Shown here: one piece after another, positions 2,640 through 7,938 of the stretch
Layout: each line of letters starts with the position of its first letter
How positions within the stretch are numbered: the stretch's first letter is position 1
Source of the DNA: a virus
Lineage: Duplodnaviria > Heunggongvirae > Uroviricota > Caudoviricetes
Virus record (IMG/VR): IMGVR_UViG_3300036876_000145
Span: 83,489-102,462 of that record
DNA length: 18,974 nucleotides
Strand: one strand, 5' to 3'
Position numbers and translations under genes: made by a program
The notes under the pieces: model-generated
Told to the model about the DNA's origin: nothing
Database searches by the model: none
The model's input: the letters and a program-made list of their open reading frames with translations, nothing else

Positions 2640-2718
2640 ATTCCGATGGCGTGAGCGGCGAAACCACTTGCCCTACAAGCAAGTATCATCGGGGGTTCGA
2701 GTCCCTCTCGGAATACCA
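2640..2718 (+). tRNA. tRNA-Val(UAC)-like with aberrant D-arm and C33
   Basis: Perfect 7-bp acceptor (ATTCCGA/TCGGAAT), A73 and an encoded CCA. T-arm is GGGGG-TTCGAGT-CCCTC. Anticodon stem is CTTGC/GCAAG with loop CCTACAA, giving anticodon TAC. No convincing 4-bp D-stem could be found in 2649-2665. Confidence 0.45.
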
Positions 2719-2729
2719 AATTTTAATGT

Positions 2730-2804
2730 GTGGGTGTCGTCCAATGGGAGGACTTTCGGTTTGCACCCGGAGAATGCGAGTTCGAGTCTCGTCACTCTAC
2801 ACCA
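2730..2804 (+). tRNA. tRNA-Ala(UGC)
   Basis: Acceptor GTGGGTG has the G3:U70 Ala identity pair. D-stem is GTCC/GGAC. Anticodon stem is TTCGG/CCGGA with loop TTTGCAC. The T-loop is TTCGAGT and CCA is encoded. There are two mismatches at the base of the acceptor and one extra nt before the discriminator. Confidence 0.55.
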
Positions 2805-2896
2805 AATGTGCCGTCCGCGACGGTGATAGATACCAGAAAGCTCTTCGGAGCGCTGGAATGGGGATCAGCCCCTTAGTCATCGCGGCTAAATTTATA

Positions 2897-2970
2897 AGCG
2901 GATTAGCCAAGTGGTTAAAGGCATCTGCCTGCAAAGCAGACAAGCACGGGTTCGAATCCCGTATCCGCTT
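2897..2970 (+). tRNA. tRNA-Cys(GCA)
   Basis: Perfect 7-bp acceptor (AGCGGAT/ATCCGCT) with a U73 discriminator, as expected for Cys. Anticodon stem is TCTGC/GCAGA with loop CTGCAAA. T-arm is ACGGG-TTCGAAT-CCCGT. CCA is not encoded. Confidence 0.75.
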
Positions 2971-2979
2971 CCCAAATTT

Positions 2980-3056
2980 GGGGGTATAGTTCCAACTGGT
3001 AGAACAGCGGCTTGTCGCGCCGATGGTTGCGGGTTCGAATCCCGTTACCCCCGCCA
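2980..3056 (+). tRNA. tRNA-Asp(GUC) variant (anticodon loop TTGTCGC with G37)
   Basis: Acceptor is GGGGGTA/TACCCCC with G73 and encoded CCA. D-stem is GTTC/GAAC. The anticodon stem has 4 bp plus a G:A mismatch, and the anticodon is GTC. T-arm is GCGGG-TTCGAAT-CCCGT. Confidence 0.55.
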
Positions 3057-3060
3057 GTTT

Positions 3061-3138
3061 GGTGTGTTGGAGGAGTCTGGTCTTCCTCGCTTCCCTGTCA
3101 CGGAAGATATCACACGGGTTCAAATCCCGTACACACCG
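3061..3138 (+). tRNA. tRNA-Asp(GUC)
   Basis: Acceptor is GGTGTGT/ACACACC with G73. Anticodon stem is CTTCC/GGAAG with the canonical Asp loop CTGTCAC. T-arm is ACGGG-TTCAAAT-CCCGT. CCA is not encoded. Confidence 0.75.
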
Positions 3139-3147
3139 CTTTCGTGA

Positions 3148-3179
3148 CTTCCTGAGTATTAAGTAGAGTACTCAGGAAG
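3148..3179 (+). promoter_or_regulatory. 11-bp perfect inverted repeat (CTTCCTGAGTA ... TACTCAGGAAG) sequestering the SD of the GIY-YIG gene
   Basis: The 3' arm contains the AGGAAGG Shine-Dalgarno, and the ATG at 3184 lies 4 nt after the stem. The loop is TTAAGTAGAG. No T-tract follows, so this is not an intrinsic terminator. Confidence 0.5.
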
Positions 3180-3183
3180 GTTC

Positions 3184-3834
3184 ATGATGAAATACACAGT
3201 CTACAAAACTGTGAATCTGGTCAACGGCAAGTTCTACATCGGTGTCCACAAGACGGACAATCCGAATGATGACTACCTTGGTTCTGGGAAGTTCATCAAA
3301 CGAGCCGTTGCGAAGTACGGAGAGCAGAATTTTCGCAAGGAAATTTTGGCTGTCTTTGAAATCCAGAGAGAAGCTTTCGATCTCGAAAAGAAACTCGTGG
3401 TTGAAGCGAAAGTTGATCCACTGTGTTACAACCTGAAAGCTGGCGGTGAAGGTGGGTTTGACTGGATCAATCGTAAGGGATTGAATAACTCGAACGAGAA
3501 CGGCGTGAAAGGAAATCGGGTTACAATTGGAAAAATAAAAACTGACCCAAAGGTAAAGAAGCGATTTACTGACAGGATCAATCGAGTTAGACAGTATCGT
3601 ACTCAAGACTACAAAGCTCGAATTCCTTCGATGTTACAAAAGTGGACAGGACAGCATCATACCGCCGAGACAAAGGCTAGACTTAGCGAAACGCATAAAG
3701 GTAAGAGCAACGGACGCTTTGGAAAACAGTGGATGTATCATCTCGAATCGCAGAGATCAAAGCCTGTCTCACCGGACGAGATCAATAGCCACATTGAACA
3801 AGGTTGGTTGATTGGTCGCCGGATGAAATTTTAG
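3184..3834 (+). CDS. GIY-YIG homing endonuclease (Seg/I-TevI-like) with a C-terminal NUMOD3-like repeat
   Basis: The N-terminus YTVYKTVNLVNGKFYIGV carries the GIY..YIG motif with downstream R and E residues. The C-terminal TGQHHTAETKARLSETHKGKSNGRFGKQW resembles NUMOD3 DNA-binding repeats. The gene sits inside the tRNA array. Confidence 0.85.
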   Translation: MMKYTVYKTVNLVNGKFYIGVHKTDNPNDDYLGSGKFIKRAVAKYGEQNFRKEILAVFEIQREAFDLEKKLVVEAKVDPLCYNLKAGGEGGFDWINRKGLNNSNENGVKGNRVTIGKIKTDPKVKKRFTDRINRVRQYRTQDYKARIPSMLQKWTGQHHTAETKARLSETHKGKSNGRFGKQWMYHLESQRSKPVSPDEINSHIEQGWLIGRRMKF

Positions 3835-3841
3835 GAGAGAC

Positions 3842-4054
3842 GTGAAGATTCTCTACGATGAACAGCGGCATCTGATCACGGTGCCGTACTCGAAAGAGAA
3901 TCTACATGAAGCAGCGCGGCAGTTGGGTATTAAGCGTTGCTGGTTTCACAAAGACCACTACGACGTTCCTAAGAGAATGATGTCTCGGATGTCGGAGACG
4001 GTAGCAGAAAAAGTTTCGCCGCGTGAAGTTTTGAAGATCGTGCGCGGCAAGTAA
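3842..4054 (+). CDS. DUF4031-like small phage protein (70 aa, HYDVP motif)
   Basis: GTG start with a GGAGAGA SD. The sequence MKILYDEQRHLITVPYSKENLHEAARQLGIKRCWFHKDHYDVPKRMMSR matches my recollection of the DUF4031 pattern (..A..lGl.r.Wfq...HYDl). The family assignment is from memory, not from a search. Confidence 0.55.
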   Translation: MKILYDEQRHLITVPYSKENLHEAARQLGIKRCWFHKDHYDVPKRMMSRMSETVAEKVSPREVLKIVRGK

Positions 4055-4058
4055 GTTT

Positions 4059-4135
4059 GGATGGATAGCCAAGTAGGAAAGGCGCTCCCCTGCAAAGGGA
4101 GTCATGCGGGGGTTCAATTCCCTCTCCATCCTCCA
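4059..4135 (+). tRNA. tRNA-Cys(GCA), second divergent copy
   Basis: Perfect acceptor GGATGGA/TCCATCC with U73 and encoded CCA. Anticodon stem is CTCCC/GGGAG with loop CTGCAAA. T-arm is GGGGG-TTCAATT-CCCTC. Confidence 0.75.
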
Positions 4136-4530
4136 AATGTACCAGTTCGGGACAACCGCTGGCAGGAAGTTTCTGCGGGAGGGAAAGTTCGGGGCTTCAT
4201 AGAGTACCGTGCGGGGTAACTCCCCGGCGACGGCGCAAGCCGTTGACAATTAGAGCTACAGAGACGAGTCACAGAAGGTGTGCTTGGAAGCGCGTAAGAT
4301 TCACGTCGGTAGTGTTGATGTGAAATGCCCGACCAAGTCCCCTGATGTGGGTGAAACGAGCAATCTTCACGGGAAGCAAGTGCAAATAGGCTGACAGGAA
4401 CTACTCGTTCCGTTATGAATCAGCGGGTAGCATGCTTGAGCGTTGGAGTAATTCAACGCCTAGACGAATGGTTGTCGCCGCGCAAGCGGAACAGAACCCC
4501 GGCTAATAGGACTGGTACAAGTTTATGAGT
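4136..4530 (+). other. about 395-nt noncoding, GC-rich, hairpin-dense region (candidate structured RNA or long leader) between tRNA-Cys and the HNH gene
   Basis: There is no plausible ORF on either strand apart from a spurious minus-strand ORF overlapping the tRNA. Local stems are present, for example GGGGTAACTCCCC and GCGCAAGC. Confidence 0.25.
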
Positions 4531-4542
4531 TTTTGAACTATG

Positions 4543-4568
4543 AGCGACCTATATTAGAGAGGTCGCTC
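4543..4568 (+). promoter_or_regulatory. 8-bp inverted repeat (GAGCGACC ... GGTCGCTC) placing the HNH SD/start at the loop/3'-arm junction
   Basis: The loop is TATATTAGAG. The SD GAGAGG (4557-4562) straddles the loop and 3' arm. The GTG at 4569 immediately follows the stem. Confidence 0.45.
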
Positions 4569-5006
4569 GTGACAAGTCAAAAAGAAGTTCAAAGACAATT
4601 AGGAATGAGTCGAGGAACCGCCAACTACAGATTGGCGCGTCTTTTACTCTTCAAATACATGCAGCAAGCTGGGGCGGACAACTGTTTTCGCTGCGGTCTA
4701 AAGCTTGAAACGGTTGAAGATTTTAGTATTGAGCATAAAAAACCGTGGTTGTACGCATCCCCAGATTTATATTGGGATTTGGAAAATATTGCTTTTTCGC
4801 ATCGCGCATGTAATTCGGGCGCAGCTAGACAGATCAATAAGACCAAAATGAGTCTTAGATCAGTAGGACCGGAAGGAACAAGTTGGTGTACGGAACATAA
4901 ACAGTTTCTTTCAGTCGATGAATTTCAAAAAAATTCCGCTATTTGGAACGGCTTACAAAGGCAATGCAAAGAATGCCGACAAAAGCGAAATAAAAAGCGG
5001 GCTTAG
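4569..5006 (+). CDS. HNH homing endonuclease (HNH_3-like)
   Basis: CFRCG...EHKKPW...HRACN is an HNH motif. The preferred start is GTG 4569, which has GAGAGG 6 nt upstream; the track's longest ORF starts at TTG 4533. The last 10 nt overlap the 5' end of tRNA-Gly. Confidence 0.8.
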   Translation: MTSQKEVQRQLGMSRGTANYRLARLLLFKYMQQAGADNCFRCGLKLETVEDFSIEHKKPWLYASPDLYWDLENIAFSHRACNSGAARQINKTKMSLRSVGPEGTSWCTEHKQFLSVDEFQKNSAIWNGLQRQCKECRQKRNKKRA

Positions 5007-5073
5007 CTCACGCTGGTAGAGCGCTGGTCTTCCAAACCGGAGGTAACGGGATCGTCGCCCGTAGTCCGCTCCA
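4997..5073 (+). tRNA. tRNA-Gly(UCC) with an unusual T-loop (ATCGTCG)
   Basis: Acceptor is GCGGGCT/AGTCCGC (one G:U pair) with U73 and encoded CCA. D-stem is GCTC/GAGC. Anticodon stem is CTGGT/ACCGG with loop CTTCCAA. Confidence 0.65.
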
Positions 5074-5084
5074 AGTTTAGATAT

Positions 5085-5160
5085 GGCGCACTCTGCTAAC
5101 GGCTAGGCAACCACGTTCTCAGCGTGTGAAATGTGGGTTCAAATCCCGCGTGCGCTACCA
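5085..5160 (+). tRNA. tRNA-Glu(CUC)
   Basis: Acceptor is GGCGCAC/GTGCGCT with A73 and encoded CCA. D-stem is TGCT/GGCA. Anticodon stem is CCACG/CGTGT (4 bp) with loop TTCTCAG. T-arm is GTGGG-TTCAAAT-CCCGC. Confidence 0.6.
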
Positions 5161-5167
5161 GATTTTG

Positions 5168-5224
5168 GCTGACCATGTTCGGCAAGGTCAGCGGTTGGGG
5201 GACATGGCTCAGTACAACCGCTGA
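5168..5224 (+). other. pair of mutually exclusive hairpins (GCTGACC/GGTCAGC 7 bp; TCAGCGGTTG/CAACCGCTGA 10 bp) in a tRNA spacer
   Basis: The 3' arm of hairpin 1 (5186-5192) overlaps the 5' arm of hairpin 2 (5189-5198). The segment is not tRNA-like. Confidence 0.4.
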
Positions 5225-5231
5225 TAACCGT

Positions 5232-5307
5232 GGGGCTATGGCGCAGTTGGGAGCGCGTAATCATGGCATGATTAAGGCCGTCGGTTCGAACCCGACTAGC
5301 TCCACCA
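5232..5307 (+). tRNA. tRNA-Ala(GGC)
   Basis: Acceptor GGGGCTA/TAGCTCC has G3:U70, with A73 and encoded CCA. D-stem is GCGC/GCGC. Anticodon stem is TAATC/GATTA with loop ATGGCAT. T-arm is GTCGG-TTCGAAC-CCGAC. Confidence 0.75.
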
Positions 5308-5313
5308 GATTTT

Positions 5314-5388
5314 GCGGAAGTAGTTCAGCGGTAGAATATTTCCTTGCCAAGGAAGGGGTCGCGGGTTCAAATCCCGCCTTCCGCTCCA
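5314..5388 (+). tRNA. tRNA-Gly(GCC)
   Basis: Acceptor is GCGGAAG/CTTCCGC with U73 and encoded CCA. Anticodon stem is TTTCC/GGAAG with loop TTGCCAA. T-arm is GCGGG-TTCAAAT-CCCGC. Confidence 0.8.
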
Positions 5389-5399
5389 AGTTTAGAAGT

Positions 5400-5461
5400 T
5401 CATGGATGCCTAGATGTCGGTGGCTAACCGAAAGGTCGCGGGTTCAATGTCCGTTCCATGT
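5400..5461 (+). pseudogene. 62-nt tRNA-like element lacking a D-arm (pseudo-tRNA or armless tRNA)
   Basis: There is a 6-bp acceptor-like closing stem (CATGGA/TCCATG), an anticodon-like hairpin GTCGG-TGGCTAA-CCGAA, and a T-arm-like GCGGG-TTCAATG-TCCGT. Only 9 nt lie between the acceptor and the anticodon stem. There is no spacer before the next tRNA. Confidence 0.35.
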
Positions 5462-5537
5462 GGGGCTATAGCGCAGTTGGGAGCGCGTCTCGTTCGCAAC
5501 GAGAAGGTCGTGAGTTCGAATCTCACTAGCTCCACCA
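5462..5537 (+). tRNA. tRNA-Ala(CGC)
   Basis: Acceptor GGGGCTA/TAGCTCC has G3:U70, with A73 and encoded CCA. Anticodon stem is TCTCG/CGAGA with loop TTCGCAA. T-arm is GTGAG-TTCGAAT-CTCAC. Confidence 0.75.
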
Positions 5538-5544
5538 AGTTATT

Positions 5545-5617
5545 GCGGGTGTAGTTCAATGGTAGAATATTCGGTTCCCAACCGAAAGATTTGTCGGTTC
5601 GAGTCCGACCATCCGCT
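5545..5617 (+). tRNA. tRNA-Gly(CCC)
   Basis: Acceptor is GCGGGTG/CATCCGC with U73; CCA is not encoded. Anticodon stem is TTCGG/CCGAA with loop TTCCCAA. T-arm is GTCGG-TTCGAGT-CCGAC. Confidence 0.75.
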
Positions 5618-5624
5618 CCGTTTT

Positions 5625-5768
5625 ATGAGAGAGTGTCCAAAGTGCGGTAAGAAAGAACAATGGGAAATCGGTTGGATTTCTACTACCAATGAATGGCGCT
5701 GGCATTGTCTGTCTTGTGATATTCGTTTTAATGATGATGGCGTAATTTACACACCAGAAAAAGTTTAG
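5625..5768 (+). CDS. 47-aa zinc-ribbon protein (CPKCG ... CLSCD)
   Basis: ATG at 5625 is in frame with the track ORF 5559-5768, whose upstream part overlaps tRNA-Gly and is rejected. Two CxxC pairs are present: MRECPKCGKKEQWEIGWISTTNEWRWHCLSCDIRFNDDGVIYTPEKV. The SD is weak. Confidence 0.4.
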   Translation: MRECPKCGKKEQWEIGWISTTNEWRWHCLSCDIRFNDDGVIYTPEKV

Positions 5769-5791
5769 GGCCGTGGGACTGCATTGGGGTG

Positions 5792-5819
5792 GTTCGAATC
5801 TCACTAGCTCCACCAAGTT
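5792..5819 (+). repeat. 28-bp exact direct repeat of the 3' end of tRNA-Ala(CGC) (5514-5541), giving a 3' tRNA fragment with no 5' half
   Basis: GTTCGAATCTCACTAGCTCCACCAAGTT is identical at both sites. The upstream sequence at the second site cannot form a T-stem or an acceptor. Confidence 0.6.
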
Positions 5820-5822
5820 TAC

Positions 5823-5926
5823 GTAGGCTTCCGAGGGATACCTCGGTGACAGTTGTTCTGAGGTCATCTCTTCATGAGGGGCTGAACAGGGAACGGCAGC
5901 GTGGGGAAACCCACAAGCCTACACCA
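5823..5926 (+). ncRNA. 104-nt structured RNA of unknown class, closed by the 8-bp stem GTAGGCTT/AAGCCTAC and ending in ACCA
   Basis: The internal hairpins are perfect: CCGAGG-GATA-CCTCGG (6 bp, 4-nt loop) and GTGGG-GAAA-CCCAC (GNRA tetraloop). Its position in the array and its A-CCA end are tRNA-like, but there is no 7-nt T-loop. Confidence 0.35.
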
Positions 5927-5929
5927 TTT

Positions 5930-6005
5930 GCGCTGTTAGATTAGCGGTAAAATCGTCACCATGACAAGGTGAAAATCGGGGGTTCGATTCCCTCACGGCG
6001 CACCA
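5930..6005 (+). tRNA. tRNA-Val(GAC)
   Basis: Acceptor is GCGCTGT/ACGGCGC with A73 and encoded CCA. D-stem is GATT/AATC. Anticodon stem is TCACC/GGTGA with loop ATGACAA. T-arm is GGGGG-TTCGATT-CCCTC. Confidence 0.75.
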
Positions 6006-6017
6006 GTTTTTAAATAT

Positions 6018-6095
6018 GGCGTTGTCTTCTAAATGGTCTAGGAAAACTGACTTTCAATCAGTGGAATGCCGGTTCAACTCCGGTCAACGCTACCA
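6018..6095 (+). tRNA. tRNA-Glu(UUC)
   Basis: Acceptor is GGCGTTG/CAACGCT with A73 and encoded CCA. Anticodon stem is ACTGA/TCAGT with loop CTTTCAA. T-arm is GCCGG-TTCAACT-CCGGT. Confidence 0.75.
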
Positions 6096-6102
6096 GAATT
6101 GA

Positions 6103-6177
6103 GAGGGAGTAGCTCAGCGGTAGAGCAGAATATTGCCAATATTCAGGTCGCGGGTTCAACTCCCGTCTCCCTCTCCA
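6103..6177 (+). tRNA. tRNA-Gly(GCC), second copy
   Basis: Acceptor is GAGGGAG/CTCCCTC with U73 and encoded CCA. D-stem is GCTC/GAGC. Anticodon stem is GAATA/TATTC with loop TTGCCAA. T-arm is GCGGG-TTCAACT-CCCGT. Confidence 0.75.
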
Positions 6178-6372
6178 ACATTTATGCGAATCTATTCAAA
6201 AGTTTATTTTCGCTTTATGGTGTGTTATGAGAAAACTAAAGAGACTAAGCAAGGTCAAACTCGTGAAGGAAATGTCCAGGGAGAGGGTGCCAGTCCCCGC
6301 GACCCGCAAGATTGAAAATAAGAAAAAGAAATTTTTGCGTTACTTAGAAACACATTGGCAGGAAGATGAATT

Positions 6373-6448
6373 GGGGGTATAGCTCAGCTGGGAGAGCGCA
6401 TCGTTTGCAACGATGAGGTCGTCGGTTCGATCCCGTCTACCTCCACCA
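6373..6448 (+). tRNA. tRNA-Ala(UGC), bacterial-type (5' end GGGGGTATAGCTCAGCTGGGAGAGCGC)
   Basis: Acceptor GGGGGTA/TACCTCC has G3:U70, with A73 and encoded CCA. Anticodon stem is CATCG/CGATG with loop TTTGCAA. The T-loop is TTCGATC. Confidence 0.8.
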
Positions 6449-7073: not shown

Positions 7074-7766
7074 ATGCCAAAAATAGTTTTTATTTCAGAT
7101 ACTCATGGGTTACACGGTCAGATGCAGGTGCCCGAAGGAGATATTTTAGTTCATGCTGGAGATATGACTAATGTAGGGCGTATAAATGAAGTTGCTGCCT
7201 TGGGCGTATGGCTCCGTGAAATGGAAAAACGTTTTAAATTTATCGTGATCGTCGCGGGTAATCACGATTGGCTTTTTCAGAAAAATAGAGCCTTGGCTGA
7301 AAGCCTGATAAATCAAGGTACAATGGGAGAAGCTACGGGTAAAATCATCTATTTACAAGATAGTGGAGTTACAATTGATGGCTTAAAAATACATGGAAGT
7401 CCTCAAACTCCTTGGTTTTTTGATTGGGCCTTTAATGTACGCCGAGGAGAACTTAAGCCCTATTGGGATAAGATCCCTGAAGGTCTGGACATATTAATTA
7501 CTCACGGTCCTCCCAGTGGTATACTGGATCAAGCAGACCCTCATTTAGGCAGTGAACATGTAGGCTGTGAAGAACTTATGGAAGCGGTGGAGCGCACCAA
7601 ACCAAAAATCCATGTATTCGGACATATACATGGCGGGTATGGTAAAATGGAACATGTGAATACCACATTTATCAATGCTTCAATTTGCGATGAACGGTAC
7701 AAACCGATTAACGCCCCTTGGGTTATTGATATGGAGCCCCGTGATACACATGGCGAAGAAAAATAA
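7074..7766 (+). CDS. calcineurin-like metallophosphoesterase (binuclear metal phosphatase/phosphodiesterase)
   Basis: The MPP signature motifs are present: FISDTHG, HAGDMTN, VAGNHD, ITHGPP and GHIHGGYG. Confidence 0.85.
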   Translation: MPKIVFISDTHGLHGQMQVPEGDILVHAGDMTNVGRINEVAALGVWLREMEKRFKFIVIVAGNHDWLFQKNRALAESLINQGTMGEATGKIIYLQDSGVTIDGLKIHGSPQTPWFFDWAFNVRRGELKPYWDKIPEGLDILITHGPPSGILDQADPHLGSEHVGCEELMEAVERTKPKIHVFGHIHGGYGKMEHVNTTFINASICDERYKPINAPWVIDMEPRDTHGEEK

Positions 7767-7938
7767 GCTACCTTCGGCGGCTTTATTGTTAAAAACTTTG
7801 GCTGGTGTAATGGCTATGGGATTACCTTACAAAAAAGGAATCTGTATATCTTGTGGGGTAACAGAAAGTAAAAAACATCACACTGACTGCTACTATCTAG
7901 ACGCTTTGAATTTGATAGTGAAATATTATAAGCCATGA
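7750..7938 (+). CDS. hypothetical small protein (63 aa, Cys/His-rich C-terminus), start overlapping the phosphoesterase stop
   Basis: ATG at 7750 lies within the phosphoesterase 3' end, suggesting translational coupling. It is the internal start of track ORF 7675-7938, whose upstream part overlaps the phosphoesterase CDS and is rejected. Confidence 0.4.
   Translation: MAKKNKLPSAALLLKTLAGVMAMGLPYKKGICISCGVTESKKHHTDCYYLDALNLIVKYYKP

Follow-up and report, generated by a model that had tools for sequence, protein, structure and literature searches.

Among the described ways in which phage tRNA clusters are remodelled, endonuclease-driven segmental amplification has been published for the SegB system of T6 and T4, in which a truncated gene stands at the unit boundary (PMC13096335). 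Another paper describes how SegB homes within the tRNA cluster of T4 (PMC2330249), and two further papers deal with tRNA pseudogenes and fragments in phage and bacterial tRNA arrays (PMC6409571, PMC8421152). In the present study, we analysed a phage tRNA array in which the 3' end of a tRNA gene is found twice; the window, that is the whole stretch of DNA analysed, has a length of 18,974 nucleotides. The surveys of R. Williams are said to contain tRNA integration sites with attL/attR repeats at tRNA/tmRNA 3' ends, and T-loop-type att sites in tRNA/tmRNA genes resemble the geometry of the repeat observed here. The first-pass annotation of this locus had claimed a 28-bp exact duplication of a tRNA-Ala 3' end around a small cassette. 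The features of the repeat and of the DNA that it brackets are as follows.

5462..5537, plus strand: intact tRNA-Ala(CGC), the functional paralogue (ARAGORN; Rfam tRNA 70.4 bits)
5514..5541, plus strand: first copy of the 28-mer, tRNA-Ala positions 53-76 and the AGTT trailer (exact match; position in the tRNA)
5545..5619, plus strand: tRNA-Gly(CCC), resident in the array, its encoded CCA truncated, ...GCTCC/G (ARAGORN; Rfam 66.1 bits)
5625..5768, plus strand: ORF47, a 47-aa zinc-ribbon mini-protein of the CPxC...STTNEW..C..CDIRFN family (HMMER, profile search, AlphaFold model)
5792..5819, plus strand: second copy of the 28-mer, orphan 3' end of a truncated tRNA-Ala(CGC) (exact match, fold, local alignment, trailer AGTTT, adjacencies in relatives)

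The duplication was confirmed. In a search of the whole window these two are the sole exact copies of GTTCGAATCTCACTAGCTCCACCAAGTT, no further copy was found even at 3 mismatches, and the chance expectation for the 28-mer is 0.00 matches (200 shuffles). The runner-up among the tRNA 3' ends of the array is only 82% identical to it. The tRNA part of the 28-mer starts with the final base of the T stem's 5' strand and takes in the T loop, the 3' strands of the T stem and of the acceptor stem, and ACCA; it is followed by the 4-nt trailer. Boundaries are sharp at both ends of the repeat, with flank similarity no better than in shuffles. The copies are 278 bp apart and the spacer between them (5542-5791) is exactly 250 nt, so the size of roughly 250 bp given earlier was accurate, as was its content of tRNA-Gly(CCC) and a CxxC...CxxC mini-ORF of 47 codons (MRECPKCGKKEQWEIGWISTTNEWRWHCLSCDIRFNDDGVIYTPEKV).

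At the second copy, no tRNA was called by ARAGORN or Rfam. As read from the sequence, two of the five T-stem pairs are possible with the preceding bases, the region folds no better than shuffles (z +1.41), and the 72 nt that precede this copy are no more similar to the first 52 nt of tRNA-Ala than shuffles are (score 7.0 vs a shuffle mean of 7.1). The description of this copy as an orphan 3' fragment without a 5' half was thus upheld; a partial tRNA match without a cloverleaf, uncalled by tRNA finders, is what characterizes a tRNA gene fragment (pseudogene). Since both copies are present, at the same distance, in 16 of 16 independent metagenome contigs (JGI, ENA), the orphan is not an assembly artefact. 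These contigs were found via an exact protein look-up, and their source metagenomes include JGI 3300037063, JGI 3300029908 and ENA ERZ27254067. Among them there are no variants within 5389-5930; as all are at least 99.8% identical to the window, they are silent on presence or absence. The orphan most likely has no function, and the scar as a whole is probably without function.

The gene order of four related phage lineages with homologous tRNA arrays (B, C, E and F) gives the position of the orphan. Ala(CGC) is directly followed by Val(GAC) in all four: in L022 Ala(CGC) at 7714-7789 precedes Val(GAC) at 7922, in L025 (lineage C) the series is Gly(CCC) 7439, Ala(CGC) 7521 and Val(GAC) 7656, and the corresponding Ala(CGC) and Val(GAC) positions are 3737 and 3823 in L027 and 1289 and 1446 in L029. 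Lineage C, in which Gly(CCC) is immediately 5' of Ala(CGC), is the closest. In the window, Val(GAC) is found downstream of the orphan.

5930..6005, plus strand: tRNA-Val(GAC), the next gene after Ala(CGC) in all four related lineages (ARAGORN; gene order in relatives)

Because Ala(CGC) comes before Val(GAC) in all four relatives and after Gly(CCC) in lineage C, the orphan occupies the ancestral Ala(CGC) position. Its trailer, AGTTT, is that of Ala(CGC) in lineages C and E; the trailer of the intact copy is AGTTA. Gene order therefore shows the orphan at the ancestral location of Ala(CGC) and the intact gene as a copy outside the ancestral context, and this lineage comparison reverses the polarity that the earlier reading implied. 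No relative has two complete Ala(CGC) genes; two complete and independent tRNA genes in relatives had been named beforehand as the result that would speak against the duplication as a scar. The relatives sampled are either at least 99.8% identical or about 65-69% identical at the protein level, and because no intermediate genome between these levels was found, the order of events is inferred from the end states only. The IMG/VR search for close relatives was negative for the 28-mer, the X core (see below) and a relative of the 868-aa protein, and phages in GenBank gave generic tRNA matches only. Related contigs have lengths of up to 332 kb, and the phage family comes from peat and wetland metagenomes.

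The claim that the cassette was inserted or shuffled as a unit did not survive this comparison. Gly(CCC) is present in all five array lineages (orthologues in 4 of the 4 others, with 68-73% identity) and directly before Ala(CGC) in lineage C, and is thus resident, while the ORF47 region and protein are absent from every related array; the cassette is not a unit because ORF47 alone was imported. A relocated Gly(CCC) remnant was not found in the spacer at 6178-6372, where scores were at shuffle level. Gly(CCC) is also the only tRNA of the array with a broken encoded CCA, GCTCC/GTTTTATG (slashes mark junctions).

5620..5791, plus strand: putative captured foreign segment, 172 bp (no similarity to related arrays or to the 5' part of tRNA-Ala; junctions from sequence)

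The left junction of this segment is at the broken CCA of Gly(CCC) and the right one is inside the Ala T stem; it is the sole foreign part of the bracketed DNA and looks imported. No promoters or terminators were found between 5300 and 6100, with scan counts at shuffle level. A candidate repeat, D11 (5755-5775 vs 4005-4025, 17/21 identical), was judged to be due to chance.

These results bear on site-specific insertion, in which a miniature element of Gly(CCC) and ORF47 would have entered tRNA-Ala(CGC) by means of an integrase, with the 28-mers as attL and attR. The geometry is right, as the repeat spans the T loop, the CCA and a few bases more, and one of its copies is part of an intact tRNA; we nevertheless consider this origin very unlikely, as the bracketed 250 bp hold tRNA-Gly and ORF47 only and no integrase. 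Neither an integrase nor a recombinase was found among the window ORFs scanned (Pfam). With Gly(CCC) resident, the bracketed DNA is not foreign as a whole, and on its left side the foreign DNA begins at the Gly(CCC) CCA, not at the repeat. Furthermore, the insert is present in 16 of 16 contigs of the population, all identical at this locus. The empty-site junction AGTTCGAATCTCACTAGCTCCACCAAGTTT, a pattern that would also detect a full second Ala(CGC) adjoining X, was absent from metagenome_contigs (241 million metagenome records); a circular or donor junction of a mobile cassette would read GGTG/28-mer/ATTGCGGG. A check for a single 28-mer or an empty site in relatives, as the first-pass annotation had advised, found neither in metagenome_contigs nor in the 16 contigs. 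Of its proposal that duplicated tRNA 3' ends are the scar of site-specific integration or of recombination between tRNA genes, the rearrangement scar stands, with tRNA-gene recombination likely, and site-specific integration is not supported: no integrase was found among the window ORFs scanned, and no empty site or attB was found.

A further att-type possibility is that the orphan serves as the attP core of the phage for a host tRNA-Ala or tmRNA gene, since an isolated tRNA 3' fragment is the expected look of an attP in a phage genome. A search of 185,579 species genomes for the 21-mer gave perfect matches, which include the adjoining CCA, solely at the 3' ends of tmRNA genes in five Gracilibacteria/Patescibacteria MAGs; this would fit an attP core. 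No bacterial tRNA-Ala attB for the 21-mer was found in the same genomes. The identity to these tmRNA genes ends at the CCA, however, and the five matches are from one clade; by a rough, uncomputed estimate, an Ala-type acceptor with a common T loop should give a few matches by chance alone. A Gracilibacteria host or attB had been considered from these matches and from the absence of TGA stops in the window (0/11), and was rejected on the normal TGA stops across 84 genes: Gracilibacteria read UGA as Gly, whereas in the phage and its relatives TGA is a normal stop codon (29/84 genes). The missing integrase among the window ORFs scanned counts against an attP as well, and so do relatives that reach 332 kb and carry large tRNA arrays. 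Large genomes with big tRNA arrays are more typical of lytic jumbo phages. We rate this the least probable of all the explanations considered.

The imported segment carries ORF47, and the search for this zinc-ribbon ORF elsewhere, also advised earlier, was productive. A word-indexed protein search had made it appear an orphan gene, which was overturned by an exhaustive HMMER search with 62 homologous proteins at E≤1e-3 (50-66% identical); a profile search gave 64 members without Pfam annotation. ORF47 keeps all invariant residues of the family, in which the knuckles C4/C7 and C28/C31 are invariant or nearly so (23 sequences). The family is real, with about 60 members, all of them small zinc-ribbon proteins of phages. 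The AlphaFold model predicts a three-stranded ribbon (pLDDT 78.6), so that the two CxxC knuckles and small beta ribbon of a zinc-ribbon mini-protein are both found in the predicted structure; no specific PDB match to the model was obtained (best E 2.4). Four sampled homologues are in ordinary small-gene operons, far from any tRNA. The Pfam Cas12f1-like TNB match (17 bits vs a cut-off of 26.3) was set aside as generic zinc-ribbon similarity. The Lar family of restriction-alleviation proteins is a candidate, as a lead only: ORF47 scores 16.7 bits against TIGR03655, short of the curated cut-off of 39.6, and weak matches to it occur in 5 of 23 family members (best E 7.4e-5).

Taken together, we favour, as somewhat the more probable account, that the orphan 28-mer is the surviving 3' end of the phage's own second tRNA-Ala(CGC), an ordinary recombination scar and not an attachment site, with a joint history of duplication and ORF47 capture. 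As a first step, the array would have gained another Ala(CGC); the simplest route is a tandem duplication of a [Gly(CCC)-Ala(CGC)] unit. The arrangement at this locus, [psi-Gly - Ala(CGC)] [Gly(CCC) - ORF47 - truncated Ala], fits such a duplication.

5389..5461, plus strand: psi-tRNA, a decayed Gly(CCC)-like fossil directly 5' of intact tRNA-Ala(CGC) (local alignment to tRNA-Gly(CCC))

This fossil is uncalled by ARAGORN and Rfam. Its alignment to tRNA-Gly(CCC) scores 20.5 vs 8.1 +/- 1.7 in shuffles, of which 0/1000 reach 20.5, with 47 of 69 columns identical, and Gly(CCC) is its best match among all tRNAs of three arrays. The succession of psi-Gly/Ala and Gly/truncated-Ala suggests an older unit duplication; only 28 bp are common to the two 'units'. 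With a spare Ala copy present, illegitimate recombination could then have inserted the ORF47 fragment, destroying the downstream copy at no cost. As the ORF47 segment starts in the Gly CCA and ends in the Ala T stem, it replaced the final CCA A, the spacer and the first 52 nt of the Ala copy. The breaks would probably have come from one or both of the resident homing endonucleases, as with SegB in the T6 tRNA cluster.

3184..3834, plus strand: free-standing GIY-YIG/NUMOD3 (Seg-like) homing endonuclease, candidate break source (phrog_314 E 2.5e-43; Pfam SegE_GIY-YIG, NUMOD3)
4533..5006, plus strand: free-standing HNH homing endonuclease inside the array (phrog_23251 E 2.4e-23; Pfam HNH)

The GIY-YIG endonuclease has 38% identity to Seg-like endonucleases of T4-like phages. 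Its gene is 45 nt after tRNA-Asp (end 3139) and 225 nt before tRNA-Cys (start 4059), and a free-standing GIY-YIG gene within 1 kb of tRNA genes, as in SegB-type systems, is therefore present.

The two fossils of this history do not look equally old. Divergence between psi and Gly(CCC) is about 32%, whereas the orphan agrees with the intact Ala copy at 28/28 positions, and the probability of both being the same age is about 2e-5; either psi goes back to an earlier event, or the Ala fragment is held identical by gene conversion. Ala(CGC) is 82% identical to the window's own Ala(GGC) and 72-78% to its orthologues; judged from these identities, homogenisation within the array is plausible, and the identity of the repeat therefore cannot date the scar. 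A single event would account for the 28/28 identity without gene conversion. In one-step, homology-facilitated illegitimate recombination with a co-infecting donor relative carrying Ala(CGC)-Gly(CCC)-ORF47, the left side would arise from a homologous crossover in Ala and the right side from an illegitimate join in the Ala T stem. The final 28 nt would thereby be duplicated at once, and the end product would be the observed one, with sharp boundaries and a perfect repeat. Exchange between lineages, which also counts in favour of duplication followed by capture, is visible elsewhere in the array, at 2730-2800, where an atypical tRNA is 96% identical between lineages A and B and other tRNAs are about 70-80% identical, and the homing endonucleases of the array would favour co-conversion from a co-infecting genome (PMC13096335). 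Against this, the donor order is found in 0 of 4 related lineages, and the right junction is without microhomology (...GGGGTG/GTTCG vs ...TCGTGA/GTTCG). It also leaves unaccounted for the broken CCA of Gly(CCC) and the Gly(CCC)-to-Ala(CGC) adjacency common to lineage C. We consider the one-step event unlikely, although with an appreciable chance of being correct.

As a perfect direct repeat of 28 bp, the duplication still offers a substrate through which Gly(CCC) and ORF47 can be deleted or amplified again. It may even be maintained for this purpose: unequal recombination between the 28-mers, triggered by an endonuclease, could reversibly delete or amplify the 278-bp unit and so tune the dose of the tRNA or of an anti-defence gene. 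Selection or gene conversion would then hold the repeat perfect, which would explain its 28/28 identity beside the decayed psi, and the phage would dose-tune Gly(CCC)/ORF47 as SegB does tRNA-Tyr in T6. A deletion junction would read ...GTGA/GTTCGAATCTCACTAGCTCCACCAAGTT/TACGTAGG, and an amplification junction ...GGGGTG/28-mer/ATTGCGGGTG, with tandem copies of the 278-bp unit. This role is improbable in our estimate.

The DNA directly 3' of the orphan contains a further element, designated X.

5823..5926, plus strand: X, a conserved RNA with a four-way junction, 3' of the orphan; its closing helix has 8 bp and is followed by ACCA (fold, homologue, covariation, covariance model)

X folds with a z of -4.25 and has a homologue at L025 7824-7932, 75% identical. 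All of its 33 pairs are kept in both lineages, 10 of them changed on both sides (0-1 in slid controls), and the covariance model scores 132 and 127 bits. A GNRA tetraloop is found where the T loop would be, and there is a 31-nt invariant core; GGGGCUG is invariant as well. The junction CCA-AGTTTAC-X is identical between the window and L025. No Rfam family matched X, and its core was found neither in metagenome_contigs, searched with one base set to exclude the window's own population, nor in genome_contigs. X is a new structured RNA, with support from covariation, directly beside the orphan. An 8-bp acceptor-like helix and a 6-bp/4-nt arm recall tRNA-Sec, but there is no T loop and no ARAGORN or Rfam call; since the putative anticodon loop (UUCAUGA or CUUCAUG) is in the invariant core, covariation cannot settle a tRNA-Sec-like identity. 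X precedes Val(CAC) in lineage C and Val(GAC) in the window, from which it follows that further rearrangements occurred, in an order not recoverable here.

The proximity of X allows the orphan to be viewed as functional, either as a split Ala-type (G3:U70) acceptor whose strand pairs with GGGGCUG of X, in the manner of a permuted tmRNA in two pieces, or as a leader in the processing of X. In the alignment to Rfam tmRNA_permuted, the orphan and X take the places of acceptor and partner, 7 pairs including G3:U70 are possible between UAGCUCC and GGGGCUG, the repeat is preserved without a single change, and the sole bacterial matches to the 21-mer are tmRNA 3' ends. However, the alignment reaches only 12.7-15.3 bits, vs a gathering threshold of 47 for RF04321, the T stem is broken at the orphan, and there is no space for a tag reading frame. 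In lineage C (L025), the X core stands behind a complete tRNA-Glu(CTC) without a tmRNA match. In a joint fold the orphan-X pairing probability is 0.0000, and forcing the pairing costs 6.3 kcal/mol and destroys covariation-supported helices. A functional orphan is accordingly given very little credence.

The array also contains an RNA gene for tRNA processing.

4139-4522: phage-encoded bacterial-type RNase P RNA

This RNA was seen in all five lineages sampled; no relevant paper on phage-encoded RNase P RNA was found in the literature library searched. The tRNA set of the array covers GNN (G-starting) codon families and Cys only.

The scar is a clean natural example of the remodelling of a phage tRNA array, with both junctions readable at single-base resolution. 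In the preferred account, a duplicated tRNA would have given cover for a foreign mini-gene that overwrote one copy. It is also a caution that not every duplicated tRNA 3' end is an integrase scar. The greater value of the scar is as a pointer to the surrounding locus, with its RNase P RNA, its GNN and Cys tRNA set and X. A ribozyme for tRNA processing brought along by a phage would be of real interest with regard to conflicts over translation between phage and host.

Overall, the locus has features of several known systems. The T4 tRNA cluster encodes small stable non-tRNA RNAs, the species 1 and 2 RNAs. Like them, X is structured, about 100 nt long, located between tRNA genes and provided with a tRNA-like closing helix and a CCA-type end, and it would presumably be freed by the same processing enzymes; X differs in its GNRA tetraloop instead of a T loop and in its invariant core. 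As in attL/attR pairs at tRNA/tmRNA 3' ends, the direct repeat here covers the T loop and ends shortly after the CCA, and one copy belongs to a working tRNA while the other is an orphan; unlike such insertions, no integrase, empty site or attB was found and half of the 250-bp segment is a resident tRNA gene. Growth and shrinkage by duplication and decay, as treated in the reports on tRNA-array pseudogenes, would leave psi and the orphan as expected debris (PMC6409571, PMC8421152), but in contrast to gradually decayed pseudogenes the orphan matches its parent at 100% identity and breaks off very sharply. In comparison with SegB in T6/T4, a truncated tRNA-Ala and a 278-bp spacing are present, yet here the duplication amounts to only 28 bp instead of a complete repeat unit; it is a tRNA gene, not that of the endonuclease, which is truncated, and a foreign ORF is at the junction. 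Furthermore, the endonuclease of the window is only 38% identical to Seg-like enzymes and is 1.7 kb away, and the event is fixed in a natural population, not laboratory-selected. The likeness to SegB lies in a free-standing GIY-YIG homing endonuclease within a phage tRNA cluster, in short-homology recombination in or near tRNA genes, by which segments are duplicated and a gene at their boundary is left truncated, and in the view of tRNA arrays as a fluid anti-defence locus (PMC13096335).

In the present study, the feature was identified as a recombination scar, in which a truncated tRNA-Ala(CGC) paralogue lies beside a captured mini-gene, and its setting is a fluid phage tRNA array with homing endonucleases. 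The 16 tRNA genes of the window are all encoded on the + strand and lie from 2640 to 6448. The gene order around the scar is Ala(GGC), Gly(GCC), psi, Ala(CGC), Gly(CCC), ORF47, orphan, X and Val(GAC), and the following elements are referred to here:

3184-3834: Seg-like GIY-YIG homing endonuclease, inside the array
4533-5006: HNH homing endonuclease, inside the array
5389-5461, + strand: psi, a decayed tRNA fossil between Gly(GCC) and Ala(CGC)
5462-5537, + strand: intact tRNA-Ala(CGC)
5514-5541, + strand: first copy of the 28-mer, comprising tRNA-Ala(CGC) positions 53-76 and four trailer bases
5545-5619, + strand: tRNA-Gly(CCC), between the 28-mer copies
5625-5768, + strand: ORF47, a zinc-ribbon mini-gene of 47 codons (CxxC...CxxC)
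5792-5819: second copy of the 28-mer (the orphan)
5823-5926, + strand: X, a structured RNA of 104 nt immediately downstream of the orphan

The first-pass annotation had reported an exact 28-bp duplication of the tRNA-Ala(CGC) 3' end, and this was confirmed. The sequence GTTCGAATCTCACTAGCTCCACCAAGTT matches exactly at 5514-5541 and 5792-5819, with no further match in the window when up to 3 mismatches were allowed (shuffle expectation 0.00), and the next-closest tRNA 3' ends of the array share at most 82% identity with it. The second copy is indeed an orphan lacking a 5' half: it was called neither by ARAGORN nor by Rfam (sub-region at E<=10 included), with the preceding bases just 2 of the 5 T-stem pairs can form, and the fold of the region is no more stable than that of shuffles (z +1.41). 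Its left flank aligned with the 5' part of tRNA-Ala at shuffle level, and the right flanks of the two copies were not similar to each other above shuffles. An assembly artefact is excluded by 16 contigs of different JGI and ENA metagenomes, which carry both copies at a spacing of 278, with no variants among them in 5389-5930. These contigs represent one population (at least 99.8% identity) and are therefore uninformative on the presence or absence of the proposed cassette. Among the 15 that span the array fully, the largest array variant is a 7-bp deletion in L005, at the equivalent of window 3004-3010, inside the first tRNA-Asp (window 2980-3056).

Between the copies, both tRNA-Gly(CCC) and the CxxC...CxxC mini-ORF were found as described. 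The inserted segment of 172 bp begins at the CCA of Gly(CCC) and ends within the T stem of Ala; it has thus taken the place of the terminal A of that CCA, of the spacer and of 52 nt of Ala. No similarity of 5620-5791 to any related array was found by BLAST or tblastn. The positions and junctions have been shown, as has, judging from these comparisons, the apparent foreign origin of the inserted piece. tRNA-Gly(CCC) reads GCTCC followed by GTTTTATG (5617-5627, +) and is the sole array tRNA without a complete encoded CCA, all others having the CCA and then a short A/T-rich trailer (e.g. AGTTT, GATTT, AAATT); its CCA would have to be repaired or added. The search for ORF47 elsewhere gave only the self-match with a word-indexed protein search, but an exhaustive HMMER search detected 62 proteins at E<=1e-3, mostly of 45-100 aa and 50-66% identical. 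The family signature CPxC...(L/I)STTNEW..(Y/H)C..CDIRFN is complete in ORF47, which is a real gene type. None of the 64 members in the profile search has a Pfam annotation, no PHROG covers the family, and its sole named similarity is a sub-threshold Lar-family match. AlphaFold predicts a zinc ribbon of three strands (pLDDT 78.6), for which no specific PDB match was found. All four of the other contexts sampled place the homologue in an ordinary operon made up of small phage genes; in three of the four its start overlaps the upstream stop (ATGA), and no tRNA was found within 4 kb (0/4). The start of ORF47 is also ATGA; since it lies only 5 nt past tRNA-Gly(CCC), the mRNA would keep almost no leader once the tRNA 3' end has been processed, and no Shine-Dalgarno was seen upstream on reading the sequence.

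No close relative of the window was found in GenBank phages or IMG/VR. Related phages were reached through homologues of the flanking phosphoesterase (65-69% identity), and these have the same gene order with a tRNA array at the equivalent place. Besides the window's own lineage, they were grouped as lineages B (L022-L024), C (L025 and L026), D (L017-L020, contigs too short for comparison), E (L027 and L028, from a 332-kb contig) and F (L029). The elements compared were as follows:

2730-2800, + strand: atypical tRNA-like gene of 70-71 nt, anticodon UGC (Rfam 40 bits, model positions 3-68 only); also L022 6895-6965, L025 5689-5758, L027 2516-2586, L029 11-81
3842-4054, + strand: DUF4031 mini-gene, 70 aa (Pfam E 1.3e-12); also L025 6248-6460, L029 372-584
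4139-4522, + strand: full-length bacterial class A RNase P RNA (Rfam RF00010, model 1-367); also L022 7137-7454, L025 6543-6876, L027 3110-3408, L029 670-1002
X homologues in lineage C: L025 7824-7932, L026 336-444

In all four other lineages Val(GAC) directly follows Ala(CGC), and in lineage C Gly(CCC) directly precedes Ala(CGC) with a spacer of 6 nt. Lineage C also has X, Asp2, Cys2 and the DUF4031 mini-gene in common with the window. When ORF47 is taken out and the 5' part of Ala restored, the right half of the window reads Gly(CCC)-Ala(CGC)-[X]-Val(GAC), which is the lineage-C order. The orphan trailer is AGTTT, as in Ala(CGC) of lineages C and E, against AGTTA in the intact window copy, and the junction CCA-AGTTTAC-X is identical base for base in the window and L025. 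Because of this order, trailer and junction, the orphan marks the ancestral Ala(CGC) site. The proposal that the cassette moved as one unit is thus not supported: only the ORF47 piece looks foreign, and tRNA-Gly(CCC) is resident and adjoins Ala(CGC) in lineage C. Site-specific insertion of the cassette at tRNA-Ala(CGC) by an integrase, one of the origins first suggested, is highly improbable, as no integrase was present among the window ORFs scanned, no empty site was found in metagenome_contigs, and the tRNA between the copies is resident.

There is scarcely any probability that the orphan is an attP core. The last 24 nt of Ala(CGC), from T loop to CCA, equal the tmRNA 3' end of five Gracilibacteria/Patescibacteria MAGs (L034 7305-7748, L037 4182-4627, also L035, L036 and L038), the only 21-mer matches among 185,579 species genomes. 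However, the identity ends at the CCA, and a code-25 host is contradicted by ordinary TGA stop usage (29/84 genes), against which the 0/11 TGA stops in the window are a sampling fluke. The match was judged a coincidence of Ala-type acceptors.

The RNA X forms a four-way junction (z -4.25). Its closing helix is 8 bp long, with ACCA after it, and X also has one 6-bp/4-nt arm and one GNRA-capped arm; its outline is tRNA-like, but without a T loop. The lineage-C copy is 75% identical, with all 33 base pairs kept in both lineages and 10 changed on both sides (slid controls 0-1), a tetraloop that remains GNRA (GAAA or GAGA) and an invariant central 31 nt, CUGAGGUCAUCUCUUCAUGAGGGGCUGAACA. X matched no Rfam family, and no copy was detected in GenBank phages, IMG/VR or genome_contigs, nor in lineages B, E and F. 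The equivalent junction of lineage B, between Ala(CGC) and Val(GAC), carries a different, strongly structured spacer of 132 nt (L022 7790-7921, +), unrelated in sequence to X and with a multi-branched fold bearing UUCG and GAAA loops (MFE -53.6, z -5.2, 0/200 shuffles). That the orphan and X together form a split Ala-type acceptor or a permuted tmRNA is hardly credible: their pairing probability is 0.0000, the split acceptor would cost 6.3 kcal/mol and the covariation-supported helices, and the permuted tmRNA scored 12.7 bits vs 47 with no match in lineage C.

The RNase P RNA lies within the tRNA array in 5/5 lineages (169-198 bits); in the window, as in lineages B, C and F, it has a tRNA-Cys immediately before it. 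The DUF4031 mini-gene is kept inside three lineages' arrays just upstream of this pair. The RNase P RNA had no blastn match in 50,697 GenBank phage records, and our literature search yielded no publication on an RNase P RNA encoded by a phage; a phage with its own tRNA-processing ribozyme looks unusual and is worth separate study. The tRNAs of all arrays are limited to Val, Ala, Asp, Glu, Gly and Cys; the first five account for every codon family that starts with G, each being served by several anticodons (window, L022, L025, L027, L029). GNN codons make up 32% of 3,810 in the window genes. The limitation to one codon column is striking, and one idea is that it is a counter-measure against tRNA-targeting defence. 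Inside the lineage-C array, L025 8329-9033 (+), between Gly(GCC) and Ala(TGC), encodes a protein of 234 aa whose matches to class-II aminoacyl-tRNA synthetases (tRNA-synt_2b) are weak. L027 3983-4089 is a tRNA-like remnant similar to psi, without a tRNA call, ending ...UAGCGUCCACCA-AGUUU.

The arrangement [psi-Gly, Ala(CGC)] [Gly(CCC), ORF47, truncated Ala] resembles a unit duplicated in tandem, and psi is closest to Gly(CCC) (47/69 columns identical, a score reached by 0/1000 shuffles). We infer that a Gly(CCC)-Ala(CGC) unit was probably duplicated in tandem and then underwent complementary decay, a spare Ala(CGC) being present before ORF47 destroyed the downstream copy. The divergence of psi is about 32% vs 28/28 identity of the orphan (chance of equal age about 2e-5). 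Either the two stem from events of different age, or conversion maintains the identity of the Ala fragment. At face value, 28/28 permits divergence up to about 10% (5% level). Gene conversion within the array is plausible: Ala(CGC) shares 82% identity with Ala(GGC) of the window, against 72-78% with its orthologues. A single event of homology-facilitated illegitimate recombination, with DNA from a co-infecting relative, would give an identical end product to this two-step history, and we consider it unlikely. Exchange between lineages is seen in its favour at 2730-2800. This atypical gene, second in the array wherever the array start is visible (window, L022, L025, L027) and at the cut left end of the L029 contig, is 96% identical between the window and lineage B, with about 70-80% for their other tRNAs, which suggests recent inter-lineage exchange or strong constraint.

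Overall, the original observation stands and its interpretation was supported in part only. For the duplication history preferred here, the GIY-YIG and HNH homing endonucleases of the array are likely sources of DNA breaks. SegB, the GIY-YIG enzyme of the T6 tRNA cluster, has been shown to drive the tandem amplification of segments, marked by microhomology and by a gene cut short at the boundary of the unit, and its homologues are significantly co-located with tRNAs (PMC13096335). The surrounding array merits separate study, and the scar itself is a fresh example of an already known type of event.
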